From the IMG/VR virus record IMGVR_UViG_3300030104_003363: a stretch of DNA of 20,000 bases, one strand, 5' to 3'. A program made the translations under genes and the position numbers. The stretch is from an uncultured virus (IMG/VR IMGVR_UViG_3300030104_003363). Taxonomy: Duplodnaviria > Heunggongvirae > Uroviricota > Caudoviricetes. This document shows, one piece after another, positions 3,310 through 17,537 of this stretch. The notes beneath the pieces were generated by a model that saw only the letters and a program-made list of their open reading frames with translations, was not told where the DNA came from and ran no database searches. The first letter of the stretch is position 1, and each line of letters opens with the position of its first letter.

Positions 3310-3425
3310 TGTGGGTTTCTGCTAGATGTCGTACTTGCGGGTGGGCTACTAACAGAATGATGAAAAGTAAAGCAGTAACAGGTATATGTCCACATTGTAA
3401 TAAAAAAGACTTACATCCGAGGTAA
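3309..3425 (+). CDS. 38-aa Zn-ribbon micro-protein (not in ORF track)
   Basis: MWVSARCRTCGWATNRMMKSKAVTGICPHCNKKDLHPR; CxxC...CPxC; TAATG coupling to the upstream gene; fills the gap before terL. Confidence 0.7.
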   Translation: MWVSARCRTCGWATNRMMKSKAVTGICPHCNKKDLHPR

Positions 3426-3429
3426 TTGT

Positions 3430-4941
3430 ATGGGTACATTTAACACTAATTTTTCTATGGAACGTAGTCGTAACGACGTAGAATATTTCTACAAGTGGTT
3501 AGGCTACACATGGGGAGAACACATAGGTGAGTGGATAGATATGTATGGCGATAACCATGACAATTCTTCTGTACATCGTGTTTGTATTATTGCACCGAGG
3601 GACCACAGTAAATCTACTACTTTAAGGGTAAAACTATTACACATGGCTCTTTTTGAACAATGGCGTAACAAACCCTTTACTTGTTGGTTGTTTTCTGCTA
3701 GTAAGGACTTGGCTGTAAGAAGATTAGAAGAAATAAGGGAGGATATGAAAAGACATCCTCAATTGTCTAGGTATCTTGACCCTAAAAGGGGTAACAAACT
3801 AGAAATACGTTTTACTAATGGTGCATGGATTCGTGCTACCTCAGTTGGTGCGGCTATTCGTGGAGAACACCCTGCGGCTATTGCATTTGATGACGTACTT
3901 GATGATATGGGCGATATGAACTGGAATGGTATAGCACAATGGTTTAGAAAAAAGATTACACCTATGTTAAGTCCCGGCACAGCGATTTTCGTAGTAGGCA
4001 CACCTATGAGTATGAATGATTTGTATCATACAGAGATGTTAGAAAACAAAACATGGAAATCGGGTACATGGTCTGCTATTCCTAATTGGGATGAGTACAA
4101 AGCCGACCCCGAAAACGTAAAACCGAAGGAATTATGGTCTGAGTATAGACCAATTAAGTTTTTGTTAGAGCAGAAAGAGGCTATGGGTGAATTGTCTTTT
4201 GTACAGGAATATTTGTGTAAGGTAGTAGATGACGAGGCTAGTGTGTTTCCTAGAATGCTAATTAGAAAAAATCTTGACATGGATGCTATATTGCAGGTAG
4301 ATAAGATGGATGGTTACAGATATGTAATAGGGTTTGACCCTGCACACGGTTTAGGGCAAGATTATAGCGTTATGATATGTTTGAAACAAGATGACGAAGG
4401 TTATATTCACTTTGTAGATATGTGGAGAAGAAATGACTTCCCACCGGATAAACAAGCAGATATGTTGATAGAGTGGAGTAAACGCTATGGTAACTGCCCC
4501 ATAGCAGTTGAGGATGTAGGTTTTCAACAAATGTACGAAAGTTTGCTTGCACAAAAAGGTGCGGTAGTAGATTATCGGGCTAGTAAGGTTGGCAACAGGA
4601 CTTTAAAGCAAGGTTTACTAAATAGGCTTAGAGTTTGGTTTGAAAGGGAAATGATAGTATTCCCCTTTGGTAACGATGCTACTAGAACAAAAGTAGGTAT
4701 ATTGTTACAAGAATTAGAAACCCATGCATGGCGTGATGGGTTAATTGTAGATTTAGGTAAGCATAACGATACAGTTATGGCTTTTGCACACGCCATAGAC
4801 CAATTCACATATAGAACACCGGATATGCCTGTAATTATGAAAACCATGAAAGGTGGTGATTGGTTAGGCGGTGAAATACAAATGCAGCGTAGAGACAGGC
4901 ATGGTATTGGTGGCAAAGTGATAGATAGGAGAGGATGGTAA
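3430..4941 (+). CDS. terL: Terminase large subunit
   Basis: Walker A APRDHSKST, Walker B IAFDD, motif III VGTP, FVQEYLC, RNase H-like nuclease motifs IGFDPA...DYS...HNDTVMA. Confidence 0.93.
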   Translation: MGTFNTNFSMERSRNDVEYFYKWLGYTWGEHIGEWIDMYGDNHDNSSVHRVCIIAPRDHSKSTTLRVKLLHMALFEQWRNKPFTCWLFSASKDLAVRRLEEIREDMKRHPQLSRYLDPKRGNKLEIRFTNGAWIRATSVGAAIRGEHPAAIAFDDVLDDMGDMNWNGIAQWFRKKITPMLSPGTAIFVVGTPMSMNDLYHTEMLENKTWKSGTWSAIPNWDEYKADPENVKPKELWSEYRPIKFLLEQKEAMGELSFVQEYLCKVVDDEASVFPRMLIRKNLDMDAILQVDKMDGYRYVIGFDPAHGLGQDYSVMICLKQDDEGYIHFVDMWRRNDFPPDKQADMLIEWSKRYGNCPIAVEDVGFQQMYESLLAQKGAVVDYRASKVGNRTLKQGLLNRLRVWFEREMIVFPFGNDATRTKVGILLQELETHAWRDGLIVDLGKHNDTVMAFAHAIDQFTYRTPDMPVIMKTMKGGDWLGGEIQMQRRDRHGIGGKVIDRRGW

Positions 4942-5220
4942 GTGAAGAAGCGATATAACAAACAAAACCCCGAAATAAGAAGGCATGGACCAAAAAGCAA
5001 AAAAATTGTCTATAAGGAATCTATTGATAAAGTAATGGATGAAGGATATTTAGACGATTGGAAAACATCAGAAGAAATTGCGTGGAAAGCAAATAAATAT
5101 GTAAGTAATTATTGGACACCACTTTCTAGGAATATAGTCCCAACGTACTTGAAGCGTACTAACCAAGTAAAATGGCGTAGGAAACCCGGCGCACATAAAC
5201 TTGAGTGGAAAAAAATGTAA
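4942..5220 (+). CDS. Small basic protein, possible winged-HTH
   Basis: GTG start abutting the terL stop; 92 aa, Lys/Arg-rich; WKTSEEIAWKAN helix pattern. Confidence 0.6.
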   Translation: MKKRYNKQNPEIRRHGPKSKKIVYKESIDKVMDEGYLDDWKTSEEIAWKANKYVSNYWTPLSRNIVPTYLKRTNQVKWRRKPGAHKLEWKKM

Positions 5221-5396
5221 AAAAATATTTTTCAAAAAAATTATAAAAAATTGTGAGAGGGGGTTGGCGGTGTAATACGGCGACCTATATCTGACTTTTG
5301 GAAGAGAGAAAAGTGTATTTTTGGCCTAAAATCGCACATTTTTAGGTGAGAATCAAAATCATACATACTATATAGTAACGCTATCTAGGTAATGGC

Positions 5397-6545
5397 ATGG
5401 AGCAAAATCTGATGTATTTTGTAATTAGGCCTAACGACGAACGCCCTCTATCCATAGAGGAAGAAGGAGAGTCAAAGACTCTTCTTGATGTGGTAAATAC
5501 TCTCGGTATTACTACATCAAAAGGAGAATCTTTCAAGCGGTTTTCTTCGATGTTAAAAGCATTAGAGAAACACGGATTTCCTGTCATCGATTTACCTCAT
5601 ATTTCTGCCGGTAAATTAGACCATCTTGAATTAAAGATTACACCAGTTAAAAGTAATGCGATTGTTAGTAGTTACAAGACTGACGAACTCAACCGTTCAG
5701 TTGACCCCAGTAACAAAAATATTTCAAGATATTCTAAGCAAGATTTTACTACACAACCTAGAAAGATTTGTCCTTGTAATTTCAATGATGATTATAGAAA
5801 AGACTCGACTCATGAAGCACCTAAATGTTACATGATTCTAGAACCAAATAGTAACCCAACCGAAGAGAAATATATCTCTAGAGGTTCAAAGTGTAGAAAC
5901 ACAATGTCATCACTAGAATATTACCAGTTAAAGACATACTTTACGAGTTCTATTATCGGTCATTATTGGAATATTATTAATGTCCCGACAATGGTATTCA
6001 AGAGAGGTGATTTCGACAAAGCAAGAGATTCAAAACTTAATCTTAGAATCGGCAACGGAGAATCATTTCAATCGGACTTTTACAGTAATAACAAAGACTT
6101 CCGAGATACAGTAGACGGTATCTGTAAAGACTGCAATTCTCAAGGGTTTCAATGTGTTACAAAACAGAAGAAAAACGGCAACAAAGAAGTCTTAGGGACT
6201 ATGCTACTGGCTCAACTAAATTATCATGGTTGGTATTCAGAAACTTACGACATGGTTGGTCTAGGTCAATCATGGAATCAACCAAAGTACTTACAGAAAT
6301 TATCTACCGGAGAAATCAGAAGTGTTGATGATTGGAATATGCCGGACTTCAAATGCCGACCGACATGGAGATTCACAATCGCAAAGTTCCTTTGTAGAAA
6401 TGACCCAATGAGTAACGAGCCTCAAGTGAGATATGGTTGGGTCAAATATGTACCAACTGATGCTATGAACAAAGCACTAGATTCAATCAACAATGTATCA
6501 TCAGAAATGCCATTGTTCGGAGAGGTTGATACAGGATATTATTAG
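5397..6545 (+). CDS. Hypothetical Cys-containing protein (382 aa)
   Basis: Long ORF; CTATATAG TATA-like box at 5368, 29 nt upstream; followed by a hairpin. No family recognised. Confidence 0.75.
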   Translation: MEQNLMYFVIRPNDERPLSIEEEGESKTLLDVVNTLGITTSKGESFKRFSSMLKALEKHGFPVIDLPHISAGKLDHLELKITPVKSNAIVSSYKTDELNRSVDPSNKNISRYSKQDFTTQPRKICPCNFNDDYRKDSTHEAPKCYMILEPNSNPTEEKYISRGSKCRNTMSSLEYYQLKTYFTSSIIGHYWNIINVPTMVFKRGDFDKARDSKLNLRIGNGESFQSDFYSNNKDFRDTVDGICKDCNSQGFQCVTKQKKNGNKEVLGTMLLAQLNYHGWYSETYDMVGLGQSWNQPKYLQKLSTGEIRSVDDWNMPDFKCRPTWRFTIAKFLCRNDPMSNEPQVRYGWVKYVPTDAMNKALDSINNVSSEMPLFGEVDTGYY

Positions 6546-6552
6546 ATGTAAA

Positions 6553-6585
6553 GGGGGTTAGGGGTCGTCAAGACCTCTAGCCTCT
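6553..6585 (+). terminator. RNA hairpin after 382-aa ORF
   Basis: GGGGGTTAGGGGTC-GTCAA-GACCTCTAGCCTCT, a 14-bp stem with G-U pairs (pairs fully only as + strand RNA); no clear U-tract. Confidence 0.45.
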
Positions 6586-6614
6586 CTTAAAACATCACAA
6601 TAGGGGGTAAAAAC

Positions 6615-6842
6615 ATGAAGATAAATGATAACACACTAAACGGAGATATAATCATAGTGAAATATGTTTACAAATCTGATAAATCTACATCATGGATTCG
6701 GGTATTTATTGACTTCGAGAATTATTTTGATTGTGTAGATTCTAAAGATAAAATAATACTTTCACAAGAAAGAAAATCGAACATATATGGCACATGGATT
6801 CAGAATAATATTATTGGAAGGATTGACAATGAAGAGAGATAA
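6615..6842 (+). CDS. Hypothetical protein (75 aa)
   Basis: ORF with GGGGT RBS upstream. Confidence 0.55.
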   Translation: MKINDNTLNGDIIIVKYVYKSDKSTSWIRVFIDFENYFDCVDSKDKIILSQERKSNIYGTWIQNNIIGRIDNEER

Positions 6843-6915
6843 GATAATTGCTGTAATAAGTAATGACGAAGAAGGTTGGGAATTAACCTTTACAGACATT
6901 GATTATTTATGCTAA
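6829..6915 (+). CDS. Possible 28-aa micro-protein
   Basis: MKRDKIIAVISNDEEGWELTFTDIDYLC; overlaps the end of the previous ORF and fills the gap. Confidence 0.35.
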   Translation: MKRDKIIAVISNDEEGWELTFTDIDYLC

Positions 6916-6931
6916 ATGGAGATGATGACGA

Positions 6932-7297
6932 ATGAAGAATGAAAGCGAGAAATTAGGAGACAACCTAATCAAAAACAGTCATGGAAAGGGGGGTGATATG
7001 CTAATGACTAACAAAAGACCAACATACCGAATAACAACCTATGAAGATGCTGAAAATCTAGTGAATCCAACTCATAAAGAACATAATGGAGATTTATATG
7101 CAGTTGTAAATATCTTAGATTTAGAAAAGAGACTTGCTAAATGCAAAAAACATTGGAATAAAAGTCTTGGACAAAAAAGGACAGGTAAAAAAGATTATGT
7201 TATATTTTACTTTGATAAAATGTCACATCTTCAAGGATGTAAATCAGATGACGAGGATATTCAATTAGGTGATTTTATACTTTCGGGTGAAAAGTAA
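6932..7297 (+). CDS. Hypothetical protein
   Basis: 121-aa ORF; alternative start ATG 6998 has a GGGGGTGAT RBS. Confidence 0.6.
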   Translation: MKNESEKLGDNLIKNSHGKGGDMLMTNKRPTYRITTYEDAENLVNPTHKEHNGDLYAVVNILDLEKRLAKCKKHWNKSLGQKRTGKKDYVIFYFDKMSHLQGCKSDDEDIQLGDFILSGEK

Positions 7298-7365
7298 ATA
7301 TGGATATTAGACGGATTTACAAAAGACTTCTATGGATATATTCATAGAAGTTTAGAGCATAAATT

Positions 7366-7401
7366 AGGTCGGCCACCAAATTGGTGGTCGGCCTTTTTTT
7401 T
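7366..7401 (+). terminator. Hairpin plus T-tract terminator
   Basis: AGGTCGGCCACCA-AAT-TGGTGGTCGGCCT followed by a T run. Confidence 0.7.
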
Positions 7402-7419
7402 ATTTTTACAAAGGGGCTA

Positions 7420-7587
7420 CCCTACAAAATAATTTTATTTTTTTTCTGTTGTGCTACCCTACAAAATATTAGCCTACAAAATATTACCCTACAAAACTTT
7501 AACCTACAAAACTTTAACCTACAAAAGTCTGAGAGAATCTAAAATCTAAAAATGTTTTCAAAAACTAAGATTTCAAACCCTACAAAA
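7420..7587 (+). repeat. CCTACAAAA cluster 1 (7 copies, including a 5x15-bp tandem array)
   Basis: CCTACAAAA at 7421, 7458, 7473, 7488, 7503, 7518, 7579, all on the + strand. Confidence 0.95.
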
Positions 7588-7602
7588 TAAAGTAAATTAT
7601 CC

Positions 7603-7635
7603 AAAAAAAGAAGGGGACTAGCCCCAACTTTTTTT
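7603..7635 (-). terminator. Terminator for minus-strand 177-aa gene
   Basis: Minus strand GGGGCTAGTCCCC hairpin followed by TTCTTTTTTT directly after the stop codon. Confidence 0.55.
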
Positions 7636-8168
7636 CAAATATCCGATGCAAACTTTAGCATCTCTTCCGGCACTTTTCTGAATAATAACCATTGTCCAGA
7701 ATCTCTGGATTTCATAACCCAATATCCAGCAGCCTTAATATCTGCTTTATTTTCTCTCCATTCATCCCAGAATGCTTTATCATTGATATGGCCGTACCAG
7801 ACCGTTCTACGGCGACTCATTTTCATGGTAATACCAAATGCTTCCATATTAGTAAACACCGGCCTAGCCGAGTCGTATTGCTTAATTTTAGCACCTTTAT
7901 CACCTAGTTTGTCTCTGATTGCTTGTGCTTTTACTTTTGCCTCAGTTTTATTGTGTGCTAGGTTCTGAATAAAGGATGAAGTATGGAAGTAACCATATGC
8001 ACCTCTAATCAATCTATCAATGTACAGGGTGTAGTATTGTTCTTTATCACCTGTTCTACATACATAGTATGTAGCCTCAATTTTGGGTTTTTGCGTTTTA
8101 GGGCTTGCGTCATCAAGTTTAGCGGCCTGTAGTAATAATACTAGACCTAGTAGGATTCCAACCAACAT
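7635..8168 (-). CDS. Hypothetical protein with N-terminal hydrophobic anchor/signal
   Basis: 177 aa; MLVGILLGLVLLLQA N-terminus; aromatic C-terminal part (FWDEWRENKADIKAAGYWVMK); TATA-rich upstream region and a downstream terminator. Confidence 0.75.
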   Translation of the reverse strand: MLVGILLGLVLLLQAAKLDDASPKTQKPKIEATYYVCRTGDKEQYYTLYIDRLIRGAYGYFHTSSFIQNLAHNKTEAKVKAQAIRDKLGDKGAKIKQYDSARPVFTNMEAFGITMKMSRRRTVWYGHINDKAFWDEWRENKADIKAAGYWVMKSRDSGQWLLFRKVPEEMLKFASDI

Positions 8169-8333
8169 GATTCATACGAAGTGGTATTAGTATATATATA
8201 TTATTGGTTATTAGGATAATATTTTGTAGGGTTAGGTTTCTATTATACTGCGTATGTCATCCCTACAAAATCTTATGTAGCATATTAGGTCAAACAACAT
8301 AGGTCAACCCTACAAAATATGGGTCAACCCTAC

Positions 8334-8370
8334 AAAAAAATGAGGGCGGGGTGTTGCAGCACCCCAACCC
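8334..8370 (-). terminator. Terminator for minus-strand 45-aa ORF
   Basis: Minus strand GGGGTG-CTGCAA-CACCCC hairpin followed by GCCCTCATTTTTTT, just after the stop at 8381. Confidence 0.5.
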
Positions 8371-8380
8371 TACAAAAGAT

Positions 8381-8518
8381 TTATTGCGTTATTTTACGGT
8401 AACGAGCCGCCCCATTTTGATACCCTACAAAAGAGTATTTTTTTGGGCATGGGTAGCCCCATTCATTCTTATTTTTCTTACTTAGCCTATCCGCTTTAAC
8501 TGTACCTTTTAAGGACAT
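8381..8518 (-). CDS. 45-aa basic micro-protein (not in ORF track)
   Basis: MSLKGTVKADRLSKKNKNEWGYPCPKKYSFVGYQNGAARYRKITQ; upstream ACCAATAATACTATAAG resembles the promoter of the 177-aa gene; downstream terminator. Confidence 0.55.
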   Translation of the reverse strand: MSLKGTVKADRLSKKNKNEWGYPCPKKYSFVGYQNGAARYRKITQ

Positions 8519-8698
8519 ATTTTACTCTAGTCGTGTTTTGCTTATAGTATTATTGGTAATCTATCTCTTTATTTTGTAGGGTGTTGTAATATTCCCTAGT
8601 ATTGTCTCCTACAAAACAATATGTATGGATTTTATTTTGTGTCCTCTAAGTATAGGGGTTTCATGCCCTAAAAAATCAACCCTACAAAATAATAATAA

Positions 8699-9081
8699 GT
8701 GTAATTTTTACACTAAGTGTTGTGAATAACACCGAATAACCCTACAAAATAAGTTTTTTTAGCAAAAAAACCCTACAAAATATTGAGCCGTAAAAAGGTA
8801 GTATTTATATAGGTAAACAGCATCTCATCACGGATATTTAGTTTTGCGGGATTATTTTGTAGGGGTAAAATAACATGGCCGGATTTGACACACAGTCGAG
8901 CGTGTAAAATAAAAACCCTACAAAATAAAAAAAACGCTGTACTGCGGCGGTGCAAAAAGTAAACCTGAGATTTTTTCCCTACAAAATAAAACCTACAAAA
9001 GATTTTCCTACATTCATTTATCCACAATTATTTTGTAGGGGTTTTCCGAAGTCAAAAAGTTACTTAGTGTAAAAACTACAC
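8699..9081. repeat. Inverted repeat pair bounding a ~380-bp non-coding segment
   Basis: GTGTAATTTTTACACTAAGT (8699-8718) versus ACTTAGTGTAAAAACTACAC (9062-9081), 19/20 reverse-complement match. Each has an inward-facing CCCTACAAAATAA 21 nt further inside. Confidence 0.8.
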
Positions 9082-9316
9082 CGAGTGTCAAAAATCACAC
9101 CTACTGTTAAACACACACTAAGATATTTTGTAGGGGTTGGGTACTCTAAAAAATGAAAGACCCTACAAAAGATTAAATAGAAAGATTATTTTTTTGGTAA
9201 AACAAAACCCTACAAAAGACAGGCTATAAGATGATGAAAAATTACAAAAAGTTACCCTACAAAATAAGGAGAATGAGAATAGAAACGCTTATAAAGGGTA
9301 ACGATATATTCAAATT

Positions 9317-9895
9317 ATGAGTAAAATTAGAAAACCGTGCAGATACAAACAATGTAAAGGGGTTGTCCATCGTGGAAAATGTCCAGTAGCCTCAAAAAGA
9401 GGTTCAAAAGGTGGTAGCACTACCGGCAAATCAAAAGCGAGAACAGGTTCAAATAATGGTCGATTTACAGGACTTCGAGAATGTGGATGTCCAAAAAGAC
9501 AACATTTACCTTCTTGTATTCATTCTCAATTAACATTACAAAAAGTCAAAATTATTAACGCACATGATTTCAATTATAATGAGAATCTATCACTTGAGAT
9601 TTACGACCAAAAAATGCAATCTAAGTTTCCAAAGTCAAAGACTAAAATTAGAATTGCGAGAAAAGAAAATATCCCACTTAAAAGAACTGTGGCAAATTGG
9701 GAATTAGAAAATGCCGTCAAGGTAAAATCAATTCCTCATTATTCATTCTTAAAATATACGGGCGTGTGTGCCTCATGTGCGTGCGAGAAAAATATCAAAG
9801 ACGCTCACGTCATACACGTAGACGATATTAAATATAAATTACCAAAAGAGCATTATTTCAAGGCTCGAATAATTTGCGACGCTTGCGAAGCATAA
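9317..9895 (+). CDS. Basic Cys/His-rich putative Zn-binding DNA-binding protein, HNH-like C-terminus
   Basis: CRYKQC..HRGKC, GSKGGSTTGKSKARTGSNNGRF, CGC..H..C, CASC...HVIH...CDAC; TATA CTTATAAA at 9288, 29 nt upstream. Confidence 0.7.
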   Translation: MSKIRKPCRYKQCKGVVHRGKCPVASKRGSKGGSTTGKSKARTGSNNGRFTGLRECGCPKRQHLPSCIHSQLTLQKVKIINAHDFNYNENLSLEIYDQKMQSKFPKSKTKIRIARKENIPLKRTVANWELENAVKVKSIPHYSFLKYTGVCASCACEKNIKDAHVIHVDDIKYKLPKEHYFKARIICDACEA

Positions 9896-9911
9896 TCGGA
9901 GACTCTAAATA
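9878..9911 (+). promoter_or_regulatory. Repeated promoter module copy 1
   Basis: GACGCTTGCGAAGCATAAT; TCTAAATA at +26; ATG 9933 at +55. Confidence 0.8.
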
Positions 9912-9932
9912 CTATTAACAAAAGGTGAGAAC

Positions 9933-10037
9933 ATGGACAAAAGAGGCGTAAATAACAGAGGTAGAACTCAAAGAATTGTTAATTTGCTTCTTGATGATTC
10001 TAAAAGATACGGGAGACAAAGATATGAACAACGATAA
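9933..10037 (+). CDS. 34-aa basic micro-protein
   Basis: MDKRGVNNRGRTQRIVNLLLDDSKRYGRQRYEQR; ATG at the conserved distance from the promoter, with GGTGA upstream. Confidence 0.5.
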   Translation: MDKRGVNNRGRTQRIVNLLLDDSKRYGRQRYEQR

Positions 10038-10269
10038 ATATAATGGATGGACAAACAGAGAAACGTGGCTTATTAATCTACATTTTGAGCCAAGAAATCT
10101 TAGTGATTTGGATTTCATAAATGATGAGATAATAACTTATGCTAAAAAAATCCAAGAATTACCTTACGGTATGTTCTTTACAGATTTTCTTGATTTGAGT
10201 AAAATCAATTGGTACGAATTAAAAAATCACGTTCAAGAAAATTATGATGACGCTTGTGAAGCAGAATGA
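10024..10269 (+). CDS. Conserved phage hypothetical protein (YNGWTNxETW family)
   Basis: KYNGWTNRETWLINLHF motif is typical of a widespread small phage protein; GGAGA RBS before ATG 10024. Confidence 0.75.
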   Translation: MNNDKYNGWTNRETWLINLHFEPRNLSDLDFINDEIITYAKKIQELPYGMFFTDFLDLSKINWYELKNHVQENYDDACEAE

Positions 10270-10282
10270 AAGACTTTAAATA
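10249..10282 (+). promoter_or_regulatory. Repeated promoter module copy 2
   Basis: GACGCTTGTGAAGCAGAAT; TTTAAATA at +26; leadered, ATG 10332 with GGAGA RBS. Confidence 0.8.
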
Positions 10283-10331
10283 AGATTGACGATAAGATTA
10301 AATTGTAAGAAAAACAACGGAGATAAAAAAT

Positions 10332-10415
10332 ATGTATGAAGATAGCGAATGGCTAAAAGAAATGATTGAAAACACGAAAGCGGGTAAGATTTATTTGGCG
10401 GGGTCTGAAAGATGA
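10332..10415 (+). CDS. 27-aa micro-protein
   Basis: MYEDSEWLKEMIENTKAGKIYLAGSER; RBS present; ATGA-coupled to the next ORF. Confidence 0.5.
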   Translation: MYEDSEWLKEMIENTKAGKIYLAGSER

Positions 10416-10531
10416 AAGATTTCCGCCCGACACTTCAAAGAAGAATTGATTTGAAGAAATCAAATCCGGCCTTGACCCTTTGGGCTAGGCAAAAAATTGA
10501 TGAACTCGGATTGAATGCCGAGAAATATTAG
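10412..10531 (+). CDS. 39-aa micro-protein
   Basis: MKDFRPTLQRRIDLKKSNPALTLWARQKIDELGLNAEKY; ATGA overlap with the previous ORF. Confidence 0.5.
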   Translation: MKDFRPTLQRRIDLKKSNPALTLWARQKIDELGLNAEKY

Positions 10532-10585
10532 ATTTACCAAAAAAGTAAAACTTGCCTTCCGGCATTAGGTTCGGGAGAGGACTTG

Positions 10586-10928
10586 TTTTGTAGGGTCAAA
10601 AAACCTTTCGGGGTGCATCCATTCGGGTGCATCCCACTTTTTTTATTTTTATAGCCTATATTTTGTAGGGTTAAAGAGTGATTTTTTTTTATTTCAGATT
10701 CAAATATTTTGTAGGGTAGTTACTTCTTCCGCAAAAATAATTTTGTAGGGTCGCCCCTTTTTTTGTAGATACATATACCCTACAAAATAATTAAGCCTGT
10801 CTTTTGTAGGTTAATTACATTTACAGTAAAACTAAAAATCCTACAAAAGATTTCAAATCCAAAAACTAAAACCCTACAAAATAAAACCGTAAAAGAAAAA
10901 ATAAAACTCAAAAATAAACCCTACAAAA
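10586..10928. repeat. CCTACAAAA cluster 3 (9 copies)
   Basis: Reverse copies at 10586, 10661, 10707, 10741, 10802; forward copies at 10778, 10840, 10872, 10919. Confidence 0.95.
10610..10644 (+). terminator. Hairpin plus T-tract terminator
   Basis: GGGGTGCATCC-ATTC-GGGTGCATCCC followed by ACTTTTTTT. Confidence 0.65.
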
Positions 10929-10929
10929 T

Positions 10930-10963
10930 AACGCTTGTGTAGCAGAATTGAAAGACTTAAATA
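10930..10963 (+). promoter_or_regulatory. Repeated promoter module copy 3
   Basis: AACGCTTGTGTAGCAGAAT; CTTAAATA at +26; ATG 10986 at +56. Confidence 0.75.
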
Positions 10964-10985
10964 AAATTACTTTTTGGTGTTAAAT

Positions 10986-11162
10986 ATGCGAACAGAACTA
11001 AGAATTGCACTAACGGTTGAGAAAATAAATCAAATTAGAGAAAGAAATGGTGAATTATTTGCTAAGGGAATTACCAACCTATCAAGTGATGAATTAGAAG
11101 AATTAGGCGAATTAATTGATGAACTTGAAAAATTACTTCATCTACAAAGAAACGGGTTCTGA
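10986..11162 (+). CDS. Small helical/coiled-coil protein (58 aa)
   Basis: MRTELRIAL...ELEELGELIDELEKLL; start assigned from promoter spacing. Confidence 0.65.
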   Translation: MRTELRIALTVEKINQIRERNGELFAKGITNLSSDELEELGELIDELEKLLHLQRNGF

Positions 11163-11196
11163 GACGCTTGCGAAGCAGAATCAACAGGTTTAAGTA
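11163..11196 (+). promoter_or_regulatory. Repeated promoter module copy 4
   Basis: GACGCTTGCGAAGCAGAAT; TTTAAGTA at +26; ATG 11218 at +55. Confidence 0.85.
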
Positions 11197-11217
11197 GTAG
11201 GGCGGAGATGGATATAT

Positions 11218-11337
11218 ATGGCGAGAATGGAGAAGAGAAGCGAACAAACACCGATAGAAGGATTAAAAGTTATAAAAATACAAAGTGGGGCACGAATAAA
11301 AAAGTGTCATAATTTGTTGAGGGAGATGGGATTTTAA
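11218..11337 (+). CDS. 39-aa basic micro-protein
   Basis: MARMEKRSEQTPIEGLKVIKIQSGARIKKCHNLLREMGF; exactly fills the space between promoter copies 4 and 5. Confidence 0.55.
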   Translation: MARMEKRSEQTPIEGLKVIKIQSGARIKKCHNLLREMGF

Positions 11338-11369
11338 CGCTTGCGAAGCAGAATCGTAAGCCTTAAAAG
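11336..11369 (+). promoter_or_regulatory. Repeated promoter module copy 5
   Basis: AACGCTTGCGAAGCAGAAT; CTTAAAAG at +26; the predicted leader begins with hairpin TGTGGG-AGAAGTAA-CCCACA (11391-11410). Confidence 0.8.
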
Positions 11370-11453
11370 GAATGACTAATTAGTTAGTTTTGTGGGAGAA
11401 GTAACCCACACTAAAAAAACATTCGCAAAAAAACAAAAAAGGAGATAAAAAAA

Positions 11454-11648
11454 ATGAAATATGAAATAGGAATGAAAGTGAGTTTCGGGCGACCGAATGG
11501 AGAAAAGACCGAGGGTATTATCACAAAGATAAACCCTAAAAGCCTCAAGGTGCGAACCTTAGAGAGTCGTGGTAGAGCAGGTAGGTCTGTTCAAGGGACT
11601 GTCTGGAAAGTACCGAGAGATGAGAGATACACGAAGGTGATACAATGA
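11454..11648 (+). CDS. Small SH3/KOW-like beta-barrel protein
   Basis: YEIGMKVSFGRPNGEKTEGIITKINPKSLKV pattern; AGGAGA RBS. Confidence 0.7.
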   Translation: MKYEIGMKVSFGRPNGEKTEGIITKINPKSLKVRTLESRGRAGRSVQGTVWKVPRDERYTKVIQ

Positions 11649-12640
11649 GTAGAGGAATGAGAGGAATGTTGGGTGCATATGCCCGATTTGGAAAAGAAGC
11701 ACAAGGAACGACTGTGAAAGAGGTTTTGTGTAATGCAAAAGCCGATTTCAAGATTGGTATGGAATCTGTCTATACTAAAGATGGTAAGGTTATACCTAAC
11801 CAATTTAGGACATTTAGAGAAGATACCGATGAAACTTTTGGTGTTGTAAAAGGCACATACAAAGTTATGCAAAATGAAAGATTGTTAAATATATCTGACG
11901 ATTTGGTAAAAAGAGGCGTAGTAGATTGGGATAGGATTGGACTTGTAGATAACGGTAGAAAAATCGTAGCATCTTTTAAGATGCCCGAAGGGTTCTCTAT
12001 CGGTGGAATGGATGATGTAGACCAATATATCATGCTGCAAAATACAAATGATGGTTCGGGTGGAATACGTATTTTACCCTCAAATGTAAGAATTGCTTGT
12101 AGTAATCAATTTACATATATGCAAAGTCTATTGAATAAAATGGGTATCAATAAAAATGCTCTAACTATCAGACATTCAGCACGTCAAGAAGATAGGATTG
12201 CACAATTAGTCGAGGCTCTAAAAATTGTAGACCATCTCAATCAGACATTCATGGAAACAGCGACAGAGTTAATCAATGTTGAAATGTCTCAAGATGAGAG
12301 AATCAATTTCTACATAGATACTTTAGGGCTAAAACAAAATGAAGATATGATGAAGGGCGGCAAAGATTATGATGCTAACAATCCTTACGGATTAGGTACT
12401 AGAGGTCAAAATACTCTCACAGAATTGTTAGAGTTAGAGTTAGCACCAACAAATCAATTGAACGGAATGGGTGGCTCGGCTTGGGGCTGTTTTAATACAG
12501 CAACGGAATATATAGACCATTCGTGGACGTACTCAAAGGACGGCAAATCAAGTGATAGCAAAGTAGAATCAGCAATCGTAGGTGCGGGTGCTAGAATGAA
12601 GTCAAAAGCATGGGAAACCATCACGGAGATGTACGCCTAA
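11645..12640 (+). CDS. DUF932 family (TIGR03299-like phage/plasmid) protein
   Basis: Motifs REDTDETFGVVKGTYKVMQN, LQNTNDGSGG, VRIACSNQ, IRHS, GSAWGCFNTATEYIDH. Confidence 0.88.
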   Translation: MSRGMRGMLGAYARFGKEAQGTTVKEVLCNAKADFKIGMESVYTKDGKVIPNQFRTFREDTDETFGVVKGTYKVMQNERLLNISDDLVKRGVVDWDRIGLVDNGRKIVASFKMPEGFSIGGMDDVDQYIMLQNTNDGSGGIRILPSNVRIACSNQFTYMQSLLNKMGINKNALTIRHSARQEDRIAQLVEALKIVDHLNQTFMETATELINVEMSQDERINFYIDTLGLKQNEDMMKGGKDYDANNPYGLGTRGQNTLTELLELELAPTNQLNGMGGSAWGCFNTATEYIDHSWTYSKDGKSSDSKVESAIVGAGARMKSKAWETITEMYA

Positions 12641-12654
12641 GATTTATCGTAAAA

Positions 12655-12708
12655 GTAAGTAGGGGGGTAGTACCCTCTACTTACGCCTTCGGGCGTAGCC
12701 TATCTTTT
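12655..12708 (+). terminator. Double hairpin / terminator after DUF932 gene
   Basis: GTAAGTAGGGGG..CCCTCTACTTAC stem overlapping a TACGCC-TTCG-GGCGTA (cUUCGg) stem, then TCTTTT. Confidence 0.6.
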
Positions 12709-12716
12709 GTAGGGTT

Positions 12717-12750
12717 CACGCTTGCGAGGCAGAATGAATAGATTTAAGTA
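12717..12750 (+). promoter_or_regulatory. Repeated promoter module copy 6
   Basis: CACGCTTGCGAGGCAGAAT; TTTAAGTA at +26; ATG 12773 at +56; preceded by TTTTGTAGGG (12705-12714). Confidence 0.85.
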
Positions 12751-12772
12751 AAAAGAAAAAGGAGAGAGATAT

Positions 12773-13183
12773 ATGAGAACAAGATACGGTAAAACCGGAG
12801 AAATATGTAAAAGACAAAACGGAAGAATGATGATGACTATAAGACCGACACCAACGGTTTTAGATGATAAAGATATAGCCATGTTTTTAGGTTATCTTTG
12901 TAATGTACAAATGCGTTTTGGTGATTATGGCGAAAAAATTAGTTATCAAGAGGCTAAACAAAAAATACATGATTGGCAATATAATTGCGGTGCAGTTACA
13001 CCTTTGACAAAGAAATTAATTATGGATTATCTAACAAGTAATCATTACTTAGCACAATATGAAGAATGTACTGATATGTATGAGTGTTATGATTCAGAAA
13101 ATGAGTCGCATAAAGCATTACTAGAAAAAGTACATGAGATATTCCCTTCTTTTGTCGTAAAAGAAACCGAGGTGATTGCGTGA
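12773..13183 (+). CDS. Hypothetical protein (136 aa)
   Basis: ORF at conserved promoter spacing; coupled to the next gene. Confidence 0.75.
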   Translation: MRTRYGKTGEICKRQNGRMMMTIRPTPTVLDDKDIAMFLGYLCNVQMRFGDYGEKISYQEAKQKIHDWQYNCGAVTPLTKKLIMDYLTSNHYLAQYEECTDMYECYDSENESHKALLEKVHEIFPSFVVKETEVIA

Positions 13184-13437
13184 GTAATCCTTACAGCGTT
13201 AAAGTTTATCCTATGGCTGCAAATCAGTTTAGGATATATCATGGTGATACGATAACATTTCAATCATACAATTCAACAATATGCACCAAAATTGAAGATA
13301 GAGTAATTTTACATGAGCCATATTGGAATATGTATTCAGCAACCACTAACAAATATTTACTAAGATTCTTAGAAGAAGATTCAATTAATACTATTAGGGA
13401 AAAAGTAAAGTCAGGAGAATATGAGGTGATTGCATAA
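13180..13437 (+). CDS. Conserved phage hypothetical protein
   Basis: FQSYNSTI...YSATTNKYL motif common in small phage proteins; GAGGTGAT RBS. Confidence 0.75.
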   Translation: MSNPYSVKVYPMAANQFRIYHGDTITFQSYNSTICTKIEDRVILHEPYWNMYSATTNKYLLRFLEEDSINTIREKVKSGEYEVIA

Positions 13438-13778
13438 TGGCTAATCTAAATATTATTACAAATCAAGTTTATGATTGGATAAACGAATCTAATACAGATT
13501 TTAACTTAGATTTCGGAGAAAAGAAACTTTACTTGGTTGTAGAATGGATTGACGGTAAATCGCTTTTTATAGAAGATTATTTTTATTTTATGAATGAATT
13601 GATTGCTGCTTATTGTGATTTAGATAGAGATACTGATGAGGTAAAAGTAATTTGGTTTAACAGAATATTCGGAATCAATAGTGAGTATCATGGAATCGCT
13701 GATGGGAGATGGACTGATGACGCTTGCGATACACAATCGGCAGACTTAAATAAGATGGAAAAGGAGAGAGATATATGA
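13437..13778 (+). CDS. Acidic hypothetical protein (113 aa)
   Basis: TAATG coupling, GAGGTGAT RBS; C-terminus encoded by promoter copy 7. Confidence 0.7.
   Translation: MANLNIITNQVYDWINESNTDFNLDFGEKKLYLVVEWIDGKSLFIEDYFYFMNELIAAYCDLDRDTDEVKVIWFNRIFGINSEYHGIADGRWTDDACDTQSADLNKMEKERDI
13719..13752 (+). promoter_or_regulatory. Repeated promoter module copy 7
   Basis: GACGCTTGCGATACACAAT; CTTAAATA at +26; ATG 13775 at +56. Confidence 0.75.
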
Positions 13779-13966
13779 GTAAAAGAGAAGAAGAGATGGT
13801 AGACTTAGCCTTAACAGAATTAGAAAATGCTATGGATGCACTACATAAACTGAATAGAGAAACGAACATAGTAGACGATGTTGAATATGATAAAATAAAT
13901 AGAGCGACTTGGGATATAGAACAAGTGTTAAAAGATTGGAAAGATGAAAATATAGGGGATGAATAA
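13775..13966 (+). CDS. Small acidic helical protein (63 aa)
   Basis: ORF track; promoter spacing. Confidence 0.7.
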   Translation: MSKREEEMVDLALTELENAMDALHKLNRETNIVDDVEYDKINRATWDIEQVLKDWKDENIGDE

Positions 13967-14219
13967 AATGAGAAACGTAAGTATAAATGGACACGGCATA
14001 AAAGAAATAAGAATACTAAGAGGCAAAGGTGATTTAGACCATTTGCTTAGAGTTATAATCGTTGGTAAAAATGATGAAGTAACCGATATTAGTTTATTTG
14101 GTATGGCTGATAAAGAAACACACAAAGATATTAAAATACCCGTAAAAGTAACTAGTGATATTCAAGTAACTACCCATGAGATTAATTTTCTTGGTGATAT
14201 AATAGATGAAGAGGAATAA
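13959..14219 (+). CDS. Hypothetical protein (86 aa)
   Basis: Overlap-coupled ORF with GGGG RBS. Confidence 0.65.
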   Translation: MNKMRNVSINGHGIKEIRILRGKGDLDHLLRVIIVGKNDEVTDISLFGMADKETHKDIKIPVKVTSDIQVTTHEINFLGDIIDEEE

Positions 14220-14221
14220 AT

Positions 14222-14560
14222 ATGGCATTAAAAGATACACTAACTAATTTGCACAAGTATGATGAAGAGATAGAGACATTATACAATGAACATGACTTTA
14301 ACCCCAATCTTAGTTTCGCTAGGAATGCGGCTAAAAATACTGTTTGGGCTGCTTTTTACACAGCAGCGAGAGAGGTAGGAATGACCGAAGATATGGCTAA
14401 ACAATTTATTGATTCAAAGTGGTTTAGACACAATCAAGAGGAAATATACAAACAAATTACAGCGACATTATTTACAATGCTTTGGTGCGAATCATCCTTT
14501 GTTGATGATACCGAGTTTAGTAAATTAGAGCCTTACATTGATAGAGGGGATGTAGAATGA
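14222..14560 (+). CDS. Hypothetical protein (112 aa)
   Basis: GAGGA RBS; tightly packed with neighbours. Confidence 0.7.
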   Translation: MALKDTLTNLHKYDEEIETLYNEHDFNPNLSFARNAAKNTVWAAFYTAAREVGMTEDMAKQFIDSKWFRHNQEEIYKQITATLFTMLWCESSFVDDTEFSKLEPYIDRGDVE

Positions 14561-14676
14561 TTAGAGATAGTTTTAAGGAAATAGTAAATGATGAGTTGAT
14601 GATACTAATTATGACACAAGTTATTTTTGGGGTAATATCATTAGGTATCTTGATTACTGCGGCTGTGATATTATGA
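14557..14676 (+). CDS. 39-aa single-pass membrane micro-protein (not in ORF track)
   Basis: MIRDSFKEIVNDELMILIMTQVIFGVISLGILITAAVIL; ATGA overlaps at both ends. Confidence 0.65.
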   Translation: MIRDSFKEIVNDELMILIMTQVIFGVISLGILITAAVIL

Positions 14677-15257
14677 ATATACCAAAATACTACGGATATA
14701 AATACTATGTGGGCGACCCTTGTTATGTCATAGATGATAATAGATGGGAAGAGTTTTGTACAGCCCTATGGGATGGAGAAAAAGAAAATAAAGATAATGG
14801 TTGTCCTGAATATCCCGTTTATATCGAGTGGGGTATAGATGGTATAATTTACAATATAGAAGTATGGAATAGTCCAAACGGAGATGGTGTTTGGAACTTT
14901 AGTAATACCGTAAAAGAAATGCGTGGTTGGATTGCAGGTACAGAAATGGGTGTTGATGCAGGTTTATTGGCTATCGTACCCTATGGTGCTATTTCTAATA
15001 ACAGCACTTGTTCAGATAAAGATAGCATAAAAGAAATATCAAATCTAGGTATTATTTTTACCGAAGAACCAACCTTAGAAACAGGTATACACGTAGTAGG
15101 TGAAGTAACACTAAATTACAATGATGAAAATAATGTATATTATTGTTATAATTGCGGAGAGCATACCTACGAACATGATGTAATAGATTGTGAAAACTAT
15201 AATTGTATGGGATGCTATACGTGTTTTGAATGTGAATGTGAGGATGAGGAAGAATGA
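14673..15257 (+). CDS. Conserved phage protein (GDPCY...GDG...VDAG) with Cys-rich C-terminus
   Basis: YYVGDPCYV, NGDG, GVDAGLLAIVP motifs; tail CYNC...CENYNCMGCYTCFECEC. Confidence 0.75.
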   Translation: MNIPKYYGYKYYVGDPCYVIDDNRWEEFCTALWDGEKENKDNGCPEYPVYIEWGIDGIIYNIEVWNSPNGDGVWNFSNTVKEMRGWIAGTEMGVDAGLLAIVPYGAISNNSTCSDKDSIKEISNLGIIFTEEPTLETGIHVVGEVTLNYNDENNVYYCYNCGEHTYEHDVIDCENYNCMGCYTCFECECEDEEE

Positions 15258-15646
15258 CTAGTAGGCGACCTAGAAAAATCATGGTTGATTTCTGTTACAG
15301 ATATATTAGAGATAACGGAAAACAAAGTGCTACTGATTTACTTCAAGCCTATGATAAACAAGATTTGAGTCTGAAAAGAATCGGTCTTTGCAGCCATCGT
15401 GAGTTAGCATCTTTATTATCCAAAGATAGACTTTTCTTTAAGGTAAAAGAAGATTGGAAAATAGTAAATGGAAATAAAGTTTACAAATATGATATTAATG
15501 ATGTGCATGAGGTAGCGAAGAAATTGGCCTTGCTAACACATATTAGAGCGACACCTGCTCAGATGCCTAAGATACTTAGGGATGCATATCTTGACGCTTG
15601 CGAGGCAAAATCAACAGACTTAAATAGAATGAGCGAGAGGGTATAA
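15254..15646 (+). CDS. Putative winged-HTH protein (130 aa)
   Basis: YIRDNGKQSATDLL...SHRELASLLSKDRLF helix pattern followed by a beta wing; C-terminus encoded by promoter copy 8. Confidence 0.6.
   Translation: MTSRRPRKIMVDFCYRYIRDNGKQSATDLLQAYDKQDLSLKRIGLCSHRELASLLSKDRLFFKVKEDWKIVNGNKVYKYDINDVHEVAKKLALLTHIRATPAQMPKILRDAYLDACEAKSTDLNRMSERV
15593..15626 (+). promoter_or_regulatory. Repeated promoter module copy 8
   Basis: GACGCTTGCGAGGCAAAAT; CTTAAATA at +26; ATG 15648 at +55. Confidence 0.85.
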
Positions 15647-15647
15647 T

Positions 15648-15809
15648 ATGAGTAAAACAATAGAGGTAAGAATGAGAGTATTAGATTGGACATGGTGTGA
15701 TGGAGATGAAGAGTGCTTCGTTACATTAGAATATACAGATAGCCTACAAACAAAACCACTTATTTATAGGGGAATTGTAAGTATAAAAGATGTGAGGGAT
15801 TTACTATGA
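15648..15809 (+). CDS. 53-aa protein (not in ORF track)
   Basis: MSKTIEVRMRVLDWTWCDGDEECFVTLEYTDSLQTKPLIYRGIVSIKDVRDLL; ATGA-coupled to the next gene. Confidence 0.65.
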   Translation: MSKTIEVRMRVLDWTWCDGDEECFVTLEYTDSLQTKPLIYRGIVSIKDVRDLL

Positions 15810-16381
15810 ATATATTTATCTTAAATGAATGCCCCGAATTAGCAGCGAGAGATTACTGCAATAAGCATCTACCTAAAATGATAGTCGAGTGCTATCAAAT
15901 GCTAGGTAGTAGTGTCATTAGACACGGTGCAACGCCCGACATGATGCCACTTACTAAGAAAGGTACGCCTCTCAAGGGTGGCTATCATAATCATCCTTGC
16001 AGCCGTTGGGTAGGAGACAGTAGAGATAATTACATTTGGACTGTACGCCATGCCCTAGAGATATGCAAAGAATATACAAACAAGTATAACAAGATTCACT
16101 TTTGCGAAGCAGGTATTCGTCATCTTAATTTTATGGCAAAACTAATTCCCGAAGGCGACCTTACACACTTTGCTCTTGCTATGCCCGATGAGTATAGACC
16201 GAACCACATACCACTTAGCACAGGAAAAGCCGGACAGCAACAGAAAGGAGACAGTCATGCCGATGGCGAAGCAGCAGTAGCCGCTTACAGGCGTTATTAT
16301 CATAGTAAAGAGTTTGCTCGATGGGATGACCGTACTGTTCCTACATGGTGGCGTTATGATATAGAGGGGAATATAATATGA
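15806..16381 (+). CDS. Pyrimidine-dimer DNA glycosylase / T4 endonuclease V-like protein
   Basis: MNIFIL..CPELAA..CNKHLPKMIVECYQML...HNHPCSRW...FALAMPDEY...AYRRYY...PTWW signature. Confidence 0.8.
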   Translation: MNIFILNECPELAARDYCNKHLPKMIVECYQMLGSSVIRHGATPDMMPLTKKGTPLKGGYHNHPCSRWVGDSRDNYIWTVRHALEICKEYTNKYNKIHFCEAGIRHLNFMAKLIPEGDLTHFALAMPDEYRPNHIPLSTGKAGQQQKGDSHADGEAAVAAYRRYYHSKEFARWDDRTVPTWWRYDIEGNII

Positions 16382-16641
16382 GTGTGCCGGATATGTTTTA
16401 CAATCAAGGTTATATTTACCGGAAAACTAATACACCCTATCAAGATATTTTTGACCGTATAGAAGCAAGTAAATATGCGGGTTGGGGTATACGAAATGGA
16501 CAAAGGGTATTCGTGATAGAATGCACCGACCATGATTGGGATTGCTGTTGTATAGCGTGTATAGATGATGATACAGTTACCGAACATTTAGAGTGGATTG
16601 ATTGGTATAGAAGGACACATTTAGGAGATGAAGAAAAATGA
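16378..16641 (+). CDS. Hypothetical Cys-containing protein (87 aa)
   Basis: ATGA overlap; CTDHDWDCCCIAC cluster. Confidence 0.65.
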   Translation: MSVPDMFYNQGYIYRKTNTPYQDIFDRIEASKYAGWGIRNGQRVFVIECTDHDWDCCCIACIDDDTVTEHLEWIDWYRRTHLGDEEK

Positions 16642-16665
16642 GTAGTTTTTTCTTAAATAAAAAAA

Positions 16666-16699
16666 GACGCTTGCGAAGCAAGAACGACAGACTTAAAAG
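16666..16699 (+). promoter_or_regulatory. Repeated promoter module copy 9
   Basis: GACGCTTGCGAAGCAAGAA; CTTAAAAG at +26; ATG 16722 at +56 (12-aa ORF), then ATG 16753 with GGAGA RBS. Confidence 0.8.
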
Positions 16700-16752
16700 G
16701 GATGGCGTTTTAGGTAGAAACATGGCGAGAGCCGACAAAGGAGATAACAGAA

Positions 16753-16944
16753 ATGAATAAAGAATATGAATATGAAATGGAAAGAGAAATATATCGCTCA
16801 ATGTTAGATTTGATAGACAATGGCGATATTGTAGAAGATATTGAGGATGCAGCAACAAGAAAAAGAATACTGCACGTTAAAACTGTTCTACATAGAATGT
16901 TAGACGCTAATGCGTTTATATCCGTAATTAATGGAGAGGAATAA
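16753..16944 (+). CDS. Hypothetical protein (63 aa)
   Basis: AGGAGA RBS. Confidence 0.65.
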   Translation: MNKEYEYEMEREIYRSMLDLIDNGDIVEDIEDAATRKRILHVKTVLHRMLDANAFISVINGEE

Positions 16945-16945
16945 A

Positions 16946-17197
16946 ATGAATAAAGAAGAAAGAAGTAATATGAATGAGGAATTAAGAAAGAATGCCCCTA
17001 TACCTGCTGATGAGTTTGACATTAGGGGTGTAAGGTTTGAGAATATGTATAACCATATTGAAATGGAGATTGTAAGTAGTTGGGTCGGTGATACAGGCGT
17101 AGTTATATGGACTTCCGATGCCGGAGATATATACACTACTAGAGAGATTAAAACACATTGGATTATGTTAGATATAGAAGAACCACAAGGATGGTGA
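16946..17197 (+). CDS. Hypothetical protein
   Basis: GGAGAGG RBS favours ATG 16946 over 16931. Confidence 0.65.
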   Translation: MNKEERSNMNEELRKNAPIPADEFDIRGVRFENMYNHIEMEIVSSWVGDTGVVIWTSDAGDIYTTREIKTHWIMLDIEEPQGW

Positions 17198-17201
17198 AAG
17201 A

Positions 17202-17369
17202 ATGACTAGAATAACGGTAAAAGTAAAAGTAGAAATAGAAGATGAAATAGAGATTGAAGTAGAGACTGATTTGATGCACGTAAGTATTGAAGAATACATG
17301 GATAATGTACTGTCAAACTTACAAGAGCATATATGTTTAGAAAATTATGCAGATTGGGAAGTGAAATAA
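17202..17369 (+). CDS. 55-aa acidic protein, paralogue A (not in ORF track)
   Basis: MTRITVKVKVEIEDEIEIEVETDLMHVSIEEYMDNVLSNLQEHICLENYADWEVK; GGTGA RBS. Confidence 0.75.
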   Translation: MTRITVKVKVEIEDEIEIEVETDLMHVSIEEYMDNVLSNLQEHICLENYADWEVK

Positions 17370-17537
17370 ATGAGTAGTATAAAGATAAAAGTAAAAATAG
17401 AAATAAATGAAGAAATAGAGATTGAAGCAGAAGATTTGATGCACCAAAGCATTGACGATTATATGGATGAAGTAAGGGATAACCCCCAAGATTACGTAGA
17501 CATAGATAATGGGTTTGATTGGGAGTTGCTTCAATGA
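17370..17537 (+). CDS. 55-aa acidic protein, paralogue B (not in ORF track)
   Basis: MSSIKIKVKIEINEEIEIEAEDLMHQSIDDYMDEVRDNPQDYVDIDNGFDWELLQ; aligns end-to-end with paralogue A. Confidence 0.75.
   Translation: MSSIKIKVKIEINEEIEIEAEDLMHQSIDDYMDEVRDNPQDYVDIDNGFDWELLQ

Follow-up and report, generated by a model that had tools for sequence, protein, structure and literature searches.

The 20,000-nucleotide stretch analysed here (hereafter the window) is DNA of an uncultured tailed phage (IMG/VR record IMGVR_UViG_3300030104_003363), and it carries a field of 37 exact copies of the short motif CCTACAAAA that we find to be a conserved, lineage-specific and site-dense module, far above chance level. 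Exact searching placed 26 copies on the + strand and 11 on the − strand, whereas 200 dinucleotide-preserving shuffles averaged 0.33 copies and never held more than 2, and the copies fall into four groups: 7 at 7421-7587 (cluster 1), 20 at 8222-9264 (cluster 2), 9 at 10586-10928 (cluster 3) and a solitary one at 12705. An earlier note on this DNA, made from the letters alone, had arrived by hand at about 37 copies grouped as 7, 20, 9 and 1 and had seen none in 1-7400 or after 12714; the exact search gives the same numbers and zero exact matches in the window outside 7421-12713. The k-mer count was carried 10,466 bases further upstream, on a fragment identical to window positions 1-6931, and returned 0 copies there (~30.5 kb of this phage genome counted in all). 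The motif is sharply defined, since only 6 one-mismatch copies occur across the whole 20 kb, and the oriented flanks extend its consensus to aCCCTACAAAA(T/G)A. The field also lies where the earlier note had put it, between the packaging module (large terminase TerL, 3430-4941) and the small early-type genes of the + strand.

The sites are intergenic, another claim of that note that we could substantiate: 0 of 38 CCTACAAA sites fall inside retained open reading frames (ORFs), though 79% of the window is coding. Retention was defined by a filter that discarded short ORFs with at least two sites, the script minimum being 55 amino acids, and two ORFs overlapping sites, 7381-7542 (53 amino acids, TTG start, below that minimum) and 8773-9027 on the − strand (84 amino acids, TTG start, dropped by the filter), were treated as spurious without a family search. 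Both orientations occur, and neighbouring sites are irregularly spaced at 14-148 bases, the exception being four successive 15-base steps at 7458-7526. A motif of only 9-13 bases, uneven spacing and two orientations are not those of a clustered regularly interspaced short palindromic repeat (CRISPR) array, in which repeats of ~23-47 bases alternate regularly with spacers of similar length in a single orientation; the first inspection had also argued against CRISPR.

Independent contigs and relatives show the field to be real and conserved. Two runs of one study, possibly the study from which the window comes, gave contigs that cover 6835-11710 with zero differences, and a contig of a different study spans 5002-9357 with ~6-10% differences and holds clusters 1 and 2, its indels adding complete motif units, of 14 bases behind position 7523 and of 15 bases behind 8231. 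The earlier note had named an assembly artefact, or relatives devoid of a comparable field, as outcomes that would undo its proposal; what we found are contigs that span the field and relatives that carry equivalents. Differences in contig depth (e.g. 31.5 versus 18 in X1) are not interpretable. Assemblies break just upstream of the field, where two same-sample IMG/VR contigs end within ~6453-6931 (a 17.4-kb contig ends at 6931 and a 51-kb contig begins near 6453) and the contig graphs of two runs branch at 6613/6824.

To place the field in its lineage, we compared 80 terminase-related loci, plus loci fetched via the protein encoded by ORF 9317-9895 (hereafter the 9317 protein). Among the terminase-related loci every lineage with enough downstream sequence bears a field after the terminase module and before the early genes, and the motif differs from lineage to lineage: CCCTACAAAA, GCCTACAAAAC, GACTACAAAA, ATGCTACAAA, GGTAACAAAT, (C/T)GTTACAAAAC, TTATCTACAAAT or GCTACAAATTT, with unrelated motifs such as AAATCCAAAT and GGGTATATAAAC in more distant lineages. 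Loci found via the 9317 protein add AACTACAAAAC, ACTACATAAC, TACTACAAATTA and CCTACGAAGT, in up to 69 copies, and many motif classes have the core CTACAAA in common. In three complete genomes the local motif is confined to one zone of 6-8 kb beside TerL, with 45 of 47 copies in 43.4-49.3 kb (G005), 71 of 73 in 63.8-71.8 kb (G006) and 57 of 60 in 33.2-39.4 kb (G010). Five loci (L005, L013, L016, L018 and L019) whose TerL is 92-95% identical (best segment, tblastn) carry GCCTACAAAAC or GACTACAAAA and not CCCTACAAAA; because phages with such similar terminases differ in motif, the field behaves as an exchangeable module. A scan of viral contigs with a 14-mer gave mostly single chance matches among the matches listed. 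We found no cultured member of this clade in the phage collection searched with TerL, in which the matches listed were ~24% identical and all 525 matching records below 60%, and uncultured TerL relatives are numerous in marine samples from many sources, the clade being widespread in marine metagenomes.

Within the field, the sites themselves are what is kept. In an alignment of cluster 2 (8560-9316; five sequences, the window and four relatives) the site columns are invariant in 126 of 126 cases, and the other columns in 436 of 631. The arrangement of neighbouring sites is likewise patterned: when 10 lineages are pooled, 67 of 88 head-to-head pairs lie at one of two fixed offsets, either 11 (46 pairs, 6 lineages) or 7 (21 pairs, in G005 and G006), yielding the palindromes CTACAAA-N4-TTTGTAG or GCTACAAATTTGTAGC, while 61 of 114 divergent pairs are 30-39 bases apart and 98 of 283 tandem copies 10-19 bases apart. 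Cluster 2 of the window contains three divergent pairs 36-40 bases apart (8222/8262, 8572/8608 and 9126/9162). We considered a LacI-type operator for the palindromes and rejected it because the central dinucleotide varies. The geometry fits half-sites that would be bound singly, side by side or as dimers by a protein recognising double-stranded DNA. The multivalent protein-binding platform put forward in the earlier note thus survives as an inference, because the sites are invariant and relatives have fixed-offset palindromes; none of the four functions that it named for the platform (iteron-type origin, terminus or ejection pause, centromere, decoy) is supported as stated, and the many-gap layout of relatives, beside terminators and core elements, points more to transcriptional control.

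That layout is seen best in relatives whose field is gene-rich. In L112, L102, L105, L028, G005 and G006 the field encloses ~10-12 small ORFs, which often run in the opposite direction to the early genes, and 3-14 sites lie in every gap of this small-ORF block, amounting to at least 10 separate gaps over 6-8 kb. Along the genes of L112, a gap reads terminator, tandem sites, core GGTTCATAAG, ~25 bases and start codon (cores at ~4943, 4520 and 5596 on the − strand); G006 (L089) has the core at 6428 and 9159 (+), after palindromes, and in distant lineages the core lies ~25 bases upstream of the start codons of field genes. The window's own field contains no core, its single copy being at 9401 inside ORF 9317. 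Since sites occupy at least 10 gaps beside terminators and promoter-like cores, transcriptional control is likelier than one origin, packaging site or centromere. The reading that we favour, and hold as plausible if tentative, is that the field would consist of operator or enhancer arrays for a DNA-binding protein that controls a hyperplastic accessory and early block. From the sites, their single-zone confinement, their conservation, geometry and lineage-specific sequence, all directly observed, we infer protein binding, the origin of the binder and a regulatory role.

In such a mechanism, the sites would serve as recognition half-sites for a sequence-specific protein of double-stranded DNA that is able to dimerise and is most likely phage-encoded. 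They would mark the hypervariable block between the packaging module and the early operons of the clade, and the arrays would regulate this block and the first early units by activation, timed shut-off or insulation. In the window the block would be reduced to one leftward gene, leaving 1.1 kb of site-dense non-coding DNA and two flanking arrays. This gene (7635-8168 on the − strand; 177 amino acids with a hydrophobic N-terminus) is the sole gene within the field and is the counterpart of the small-ORF blocks (~10-12, mostly leftward) of gene-rich relatives. Among the terminase-related loci compared, a homologue was found only in L002; its product has no Pfam match and one weak PHROG match, to a family of unknown function. 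Cluster 2 (15 sites on the + and 5 on the − strand) occupies the 1.15-kb divergent intergenic gap between this gene and ORF 9317-9895 on the + strand. Cluster 3 (9 sites on both strands, in the near-symmetric order − − − − + − + + +) is preceded by a terminator at 10610-10635 and stops 2 bases before a promoter-like element at 10931, with the same kind of site order in G005 and G006. The solitary site (12705-12713, −) stands between a terminator at 12681-12698 and a promoter-like element at 12718.

Several observations weigh against operator or enhancer arrays. Cluster 1 (7421-7587, all 7 sites on the + strand) occupies a pocket where transcription ends converge from both sides and which offers no obvious gene for it to regulate: a strong terminator from the terminator scan lies upstream at 7366-7394, and a hairpin GGGGACTAGCCCC at ~7606-7634 (4 pairs with A/T runs on both sides, read by eye and not flagged by the scan) closes the leftward gene 7635-8168, so that this cluster is probably in an untranscribed pocket, judging from these predicted ends. 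Twenty sites for one small gene are excessive. The motif class to which the window belongs (class A) lacks fixed-offset palindromes, with 0 of 3 head-to-head pairs at such offsets in each of the window and L011. Site orientation moreover tracks the genome axis, since in each of the 10 lineages most sites lie on the strand that is sense for TerL, and it does not follow local gene direction: L016 has 27 + versus 11 − sites between + genes, while L112, L102, L105 and L028 have mostly + sites between − genes. This strand bias may be inherited, the lineages being related by descent.

No protein family presents itself cleanly as the binder either, which also counts against this reading: when all ORFs were clustered, no family followed the motif classes cleanly. 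Two orphans at the field edges were examined as candidates. The first is a 382-amino-acid Cys-containing protein (5397-6545, +) at the terminase-side edge, without a Pfam or PHROG match, whose family occupies this position in six motif classes and is 57-100% identical within and 13-30% identical between classes (17 rows); only 21 representative clusters match it in 1.84 billion proteins. Against it, the L102 and L110 members are 32% identical and go with the same motif, and of four complete genomes with motifs of other classes none was found to encode a member. The second is the 9317 protein, a 192-amino-acid Cys-rich basic orphan (9317-9895, +) and the first rightward gene product after the main array in most lineages, its gene lying just downstream of arrays in most of the 29 newly fetched loci that were tabulated (33 returned). 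Its tree groups by motif, 22 same-motif pairs being 59-100% and 231 different-motif pairs 29-65% identical when the 7 of 30 rows of unknown motif are left out. This covariation fails in L102 and L110, which have the same motif at 59% protein identity, and in L114 and L112, whose 9317 proteins are 94.7% identical while ACTACAAA occurs 1 time in L114 versus 67 times in L112. The 9317 protein has no Pfam, PHROG or PDB match, and a Pfam search of the family at E up to 10 gave nothing credible. Neither orphan has a solved relative, the predicted models are too poor for fold searches (pLDDT 61 for the 9317 protein and 36.8 for the protein of ORF 5397-6545), and a protein atlas look-up gave no lead (best score 0.79). 

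Stoperators, the sites of L5- and D29-type repressors, occur in dozens of copies of ~13 bases. In the portions of the literature on Cluster A mycobacteriophages that describe them, stoperators resemble the field in being short, asymmetric, intergenic sites whose sequence differs between related phages (PMC9283540, PMC6550527). Stoperators are spread genome-wide and oriented with transcription, whereas 94-97% of field copies are in one 6-8 kb zone, at up to ~20 sites per kb, with several per gap, in both orientations and, in most lineages, with fixed-offset palindromes. No repressor family or homologue for a stoperator-like system emerged from the PHROG and Pfam scans of the window ORFs. The field belongs among known kinds of phage cis-element arrays and stands out by its density and by its concerted change between near-identical phages.

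A more speculative reading, which we regard as possible but doubtful, is that the field and a fast-evolving binder might together form a lineage "barcode". Its 37-76 exact docking sites would be held uniform through concerted evolution and would move as one module among phages that are otherwise 95% identical, so that a lytic marine phage could restrict a genome-level step to its own DNA. If so, the step could be the switching of takeover and accessory genes or the handling of the first-entering end, and co-infecting relatives would be excluded. The logic would be like that of immunity or incompatibility groups, and to our knowledge such an architecture has not been described before. The field is in any case the most conspicuous non-coding feature of these genomes and the place where otherwise near-identical phages differ. 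Discovery of the binder would yield a specificity code (a protein and its 10-13 base site) that changes between close relatives, help to show how genes that are expressed first and change fast are organised in an uncultured phage group, and account for the assembly breaks at the field.

Iterons offer the best alternative to operator or enhancer arrays, one that we nonetheless consider unlikely: an initiator would bind the repeats and melt an AT-rich stretch next to them, and extra arrays would titrate or handcuff the initiator, providing an origin with copy control. Plasmid iterons of the P1 and F type are typically 17-22 bases long and present in 4-14 copies at one locus beside a recognisable rep gene, and the iterons-rep-iterons layout of these replicons resembles the bracketing of a small operon by arrays in the window (cluster 2, ORF 9317-10530, cluster 3). 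Further points of likeness are the flanking of a small gene by arrays of a single short repeat, flexible copy number, AT-rich spacers, the near-symmetry of cluster 3 and the probable lack of transcription through cluster 1. The field departs from iterons in its 37-76 sites of 10-13 bases over several kb, and in relatives (L112, L102, L105, G005 and G006) the sites occupy at least 10 gaps over 6-8 kb and not a compact single locus. Scans of 28 window ORFs against PHROGs and Pfam yielded no Rep, helicase-loader or primase family, although an orphan could be an initiator, and cumulative GC skew is nearly flat over ~7000-10500. A lone TTATCCACA at 9019-9027 was rejected as a DnaA box, since it is not kept in the four aligned relatives, which have TTAGCCACA, TTAGCCATG, TTATCCATG and TTAGCCACG in its place.

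The constant position of the field next to the TerL module raises another explanation, in our view rather improbable, whereby the readers of the sites would be an injected protein or the machinery for packaging or ejection, as in a terminase recognition zone or a T5-like injection stop at the first-entering end. The strand bias along the genome axis in 10 of 10 lineages would suit it, as would a 119-base end repeat at the field edge in G006, the sole relative classed with direct terminal repeats. The T5 injection-stop region (iss), in what part of its description conveys, is like the field large, untranslated, near the first-expressed genes and rich in repeats, inverted repeats and palindromes (bioRxiv 10.1101/866236). 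According to that same part, iss belongs to a long terminal repeat and contains 8 DnaA boxes whose layout is fixed, whereas the field has a single dominant motif and a lone, unconserved DnaA-box-like 9-mer. Several related IMG/VR contigs do end at or inside the field, but assemblies can break at repeats alone, and the break point of a circular contig is arbitrary, with a ~11% chance of lying within an 8-kb field. The spread of the field over 6-8 kb with intervening genes also speaks against a packaging or ejection signal, and we recognised no small terminase, the 92-amino-acid protein encoded at 4942-5220 being invariant with respect to the motif.

The arrays might instead be recombination joints that shuffle gene cassettes, a role that could coexist with regulation and that we judge improbable as the explanation of the field. 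The block is hypervariable between conserved flanks, phages whose TerL is 95% identical differ in gene content, L112 and L114 become homologous again ~35 bases upstream of the first early gene, and a terminator and repeats flank each cassette. As far as the available portions of two reports describe them, the PeSL (promoter plus stem-loop) cassettes in hyperplastic regions of T4-type phages are comparable in that repeated intergenic regulatory cassettes flank small variable ORFs and undergo modular shuffling (PMC2839356, PMC4122927). A PeSL is one promoter-terminator unit per junction, unlike a field junction, which combines 3-20 lineage-specific sites of 10-13 bases with a terminator and a core. 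The order of terminator, arrays and core GGTTCATAAG is found in L112 and G006, the core is missing from the window field, and the promoter is only a candidate. Homology-driven shuffling would, however, need less than 9-13 bases kept exact in 37-76 copies, palindromes at fixed offsets and a sequence that changes with the lineage.

Sites for a host factor (as a decoy, a recruitment platform or a Chi-like polar protection of the entering end) would have motif classes track hosts, and they would explain why no phage protein covaries cleanly with the motif, why the sites are polar along the genome axis and why many classes have the core CTACAAA in common. We think this quite improbable, as motifs differ among phages with 92-95% identical TerL and fixed-offset palindromes suggest a dimeric binder of double-stranded DNA rather than a strand-reading nuclease. 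The search of host genomes for the motif, which the earlier note had proposed, gave no host lead: among 120 prokaryotic loci from a triple-site scan we found only unrelated tandem repeats, 102 of them with two or fewer spacing values, and none was window-like by blastn.

That every site acts on its own as a minimal promoter, used by a phage RNA polymerase or sigma factor, we regard as very improbable. Phage takeover regions do have tandem strong promoters, and in L112, L102, L105 and L028 TTTGTAG is the sense-strand reading of most sites that separate leftward genes (165 versus 60 in "− −" gaps), but L016 reverses this sense-strand rule (27 versus 11 in "+ +" gaps), head-to-head pairs overlap at fixed offsets, and given the direction that L112 requires the frequent 30-39-base pairs would be convergent promoters. 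No -10-like hexamer lies at a fixed distance in 7 lineages, and the lack of a fixed-distance TAnnnT in them led us to reject the site as a -35-like or MotA-box-like element. Moreover, a strictly strand-specific promoter-like element, ACGCTTGCGAAGCAGAAT, exists separately, making individual promoters an unlikely role for the sites. As to a ParB-parS centromere, which has a partition protein gene and palindromic parS sites, the scans of window ORFs yielded neither a ParA nor a ParB family, and the window sites are single half-sites.

The ACGCTTGCGAAGCAGAAT element occurs in 10 copies with three or fewer mismatches, all on the + strand within 9879-18974 (starts at 9879, 10250, 10931, 11164, 11337, 12718, 13720, 15594, 16667 and 18957), and includes the short inverted repeat GCTT-GCG-AAGC. 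Six of these copies have TTAA(A/G)TA at an unvarying distance of 26 bases downstream, ~35-40 bases before start codons, and the element is the commonest 8-mer in L108, L109 and L114, relatives with other field motifs. It is a candidate bipartite early promoter by its position and layout, and not part of the field, whose sites abut it at 10931 and 12718; as an early promoter it is a better candidate than the field motif, which is a different kind of signal. Protein and DNA signals overlap here, since at 9876-9895 and 10247-10269 element copies encode the last codons of ORF 9317-9895 (...CDACEA) and ORF 9976-10269 (...DDACEAE), and a C-terminal C-x-x-C-E-A is kept in most of the 9317 family (A1). 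A sigma-70 promoter scan of the window showed no enrichment (18 found versus 23.2 expected), a tRNA scan found none, and the Rfam search for RNA genes gave one weak match only (trpB motif, E 0.71, 31 bits versus a gathering score of 59). The spacers of cluster 2 at 8695-8735 and 9055-9100 contain small inverted repeats, AGTGT-N5-8-ACAC(T/C), that are kept in L002, L009, L011 and L014, some with both arms changed, and could be a second site type or small RNA hairpins.

Upstream of the field, the window encodes a portal (167-1561, −), a metallophosphatase-type exonuclease (1861-3309) and TerL, followed by orphan ORFs as far as 7297; downstream, starting at 9317, the + strand carries many small ORFs. 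Directly after TerL in nearly all relatives is a very basic 92-amino-acid protein (4942-5220, +), which is 89-98% identical in close and 26-40% identical in distant relatives, does not vary with the motif and could be a small DNA-binding partner of terminase. Among the gene products of G005, a complete relative of 71 kb, are a family B DNA polymerase, a clamp loader, GroEL, a Mom-like protein and an orphan of 2692 amino acids; the ORF of this orphan (10249-18327 in L082) follows a tape-measure-like gene, has a counterpart of 2662 amino acids in G006 and matched nothing in PHROGs or among PDB sequences. The hairpin in the promoter-like element makes a virion-borne polymerase a conceivable identity for this protein. 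Among the early genes, the products of 9976-10269 (matching DUF7249 and phrog_871) and 14673-15257 (matching phrog_20074) have a common N-terminal NGWTNRETW-type motif and look like paralogous early proteins. Finally, 11645-12640 encodes a DUF932 protein (phrog_1221) that is 90-93% identical in relatives with a different field motif and is also encoded inside the G005 field, in reversed orientation.

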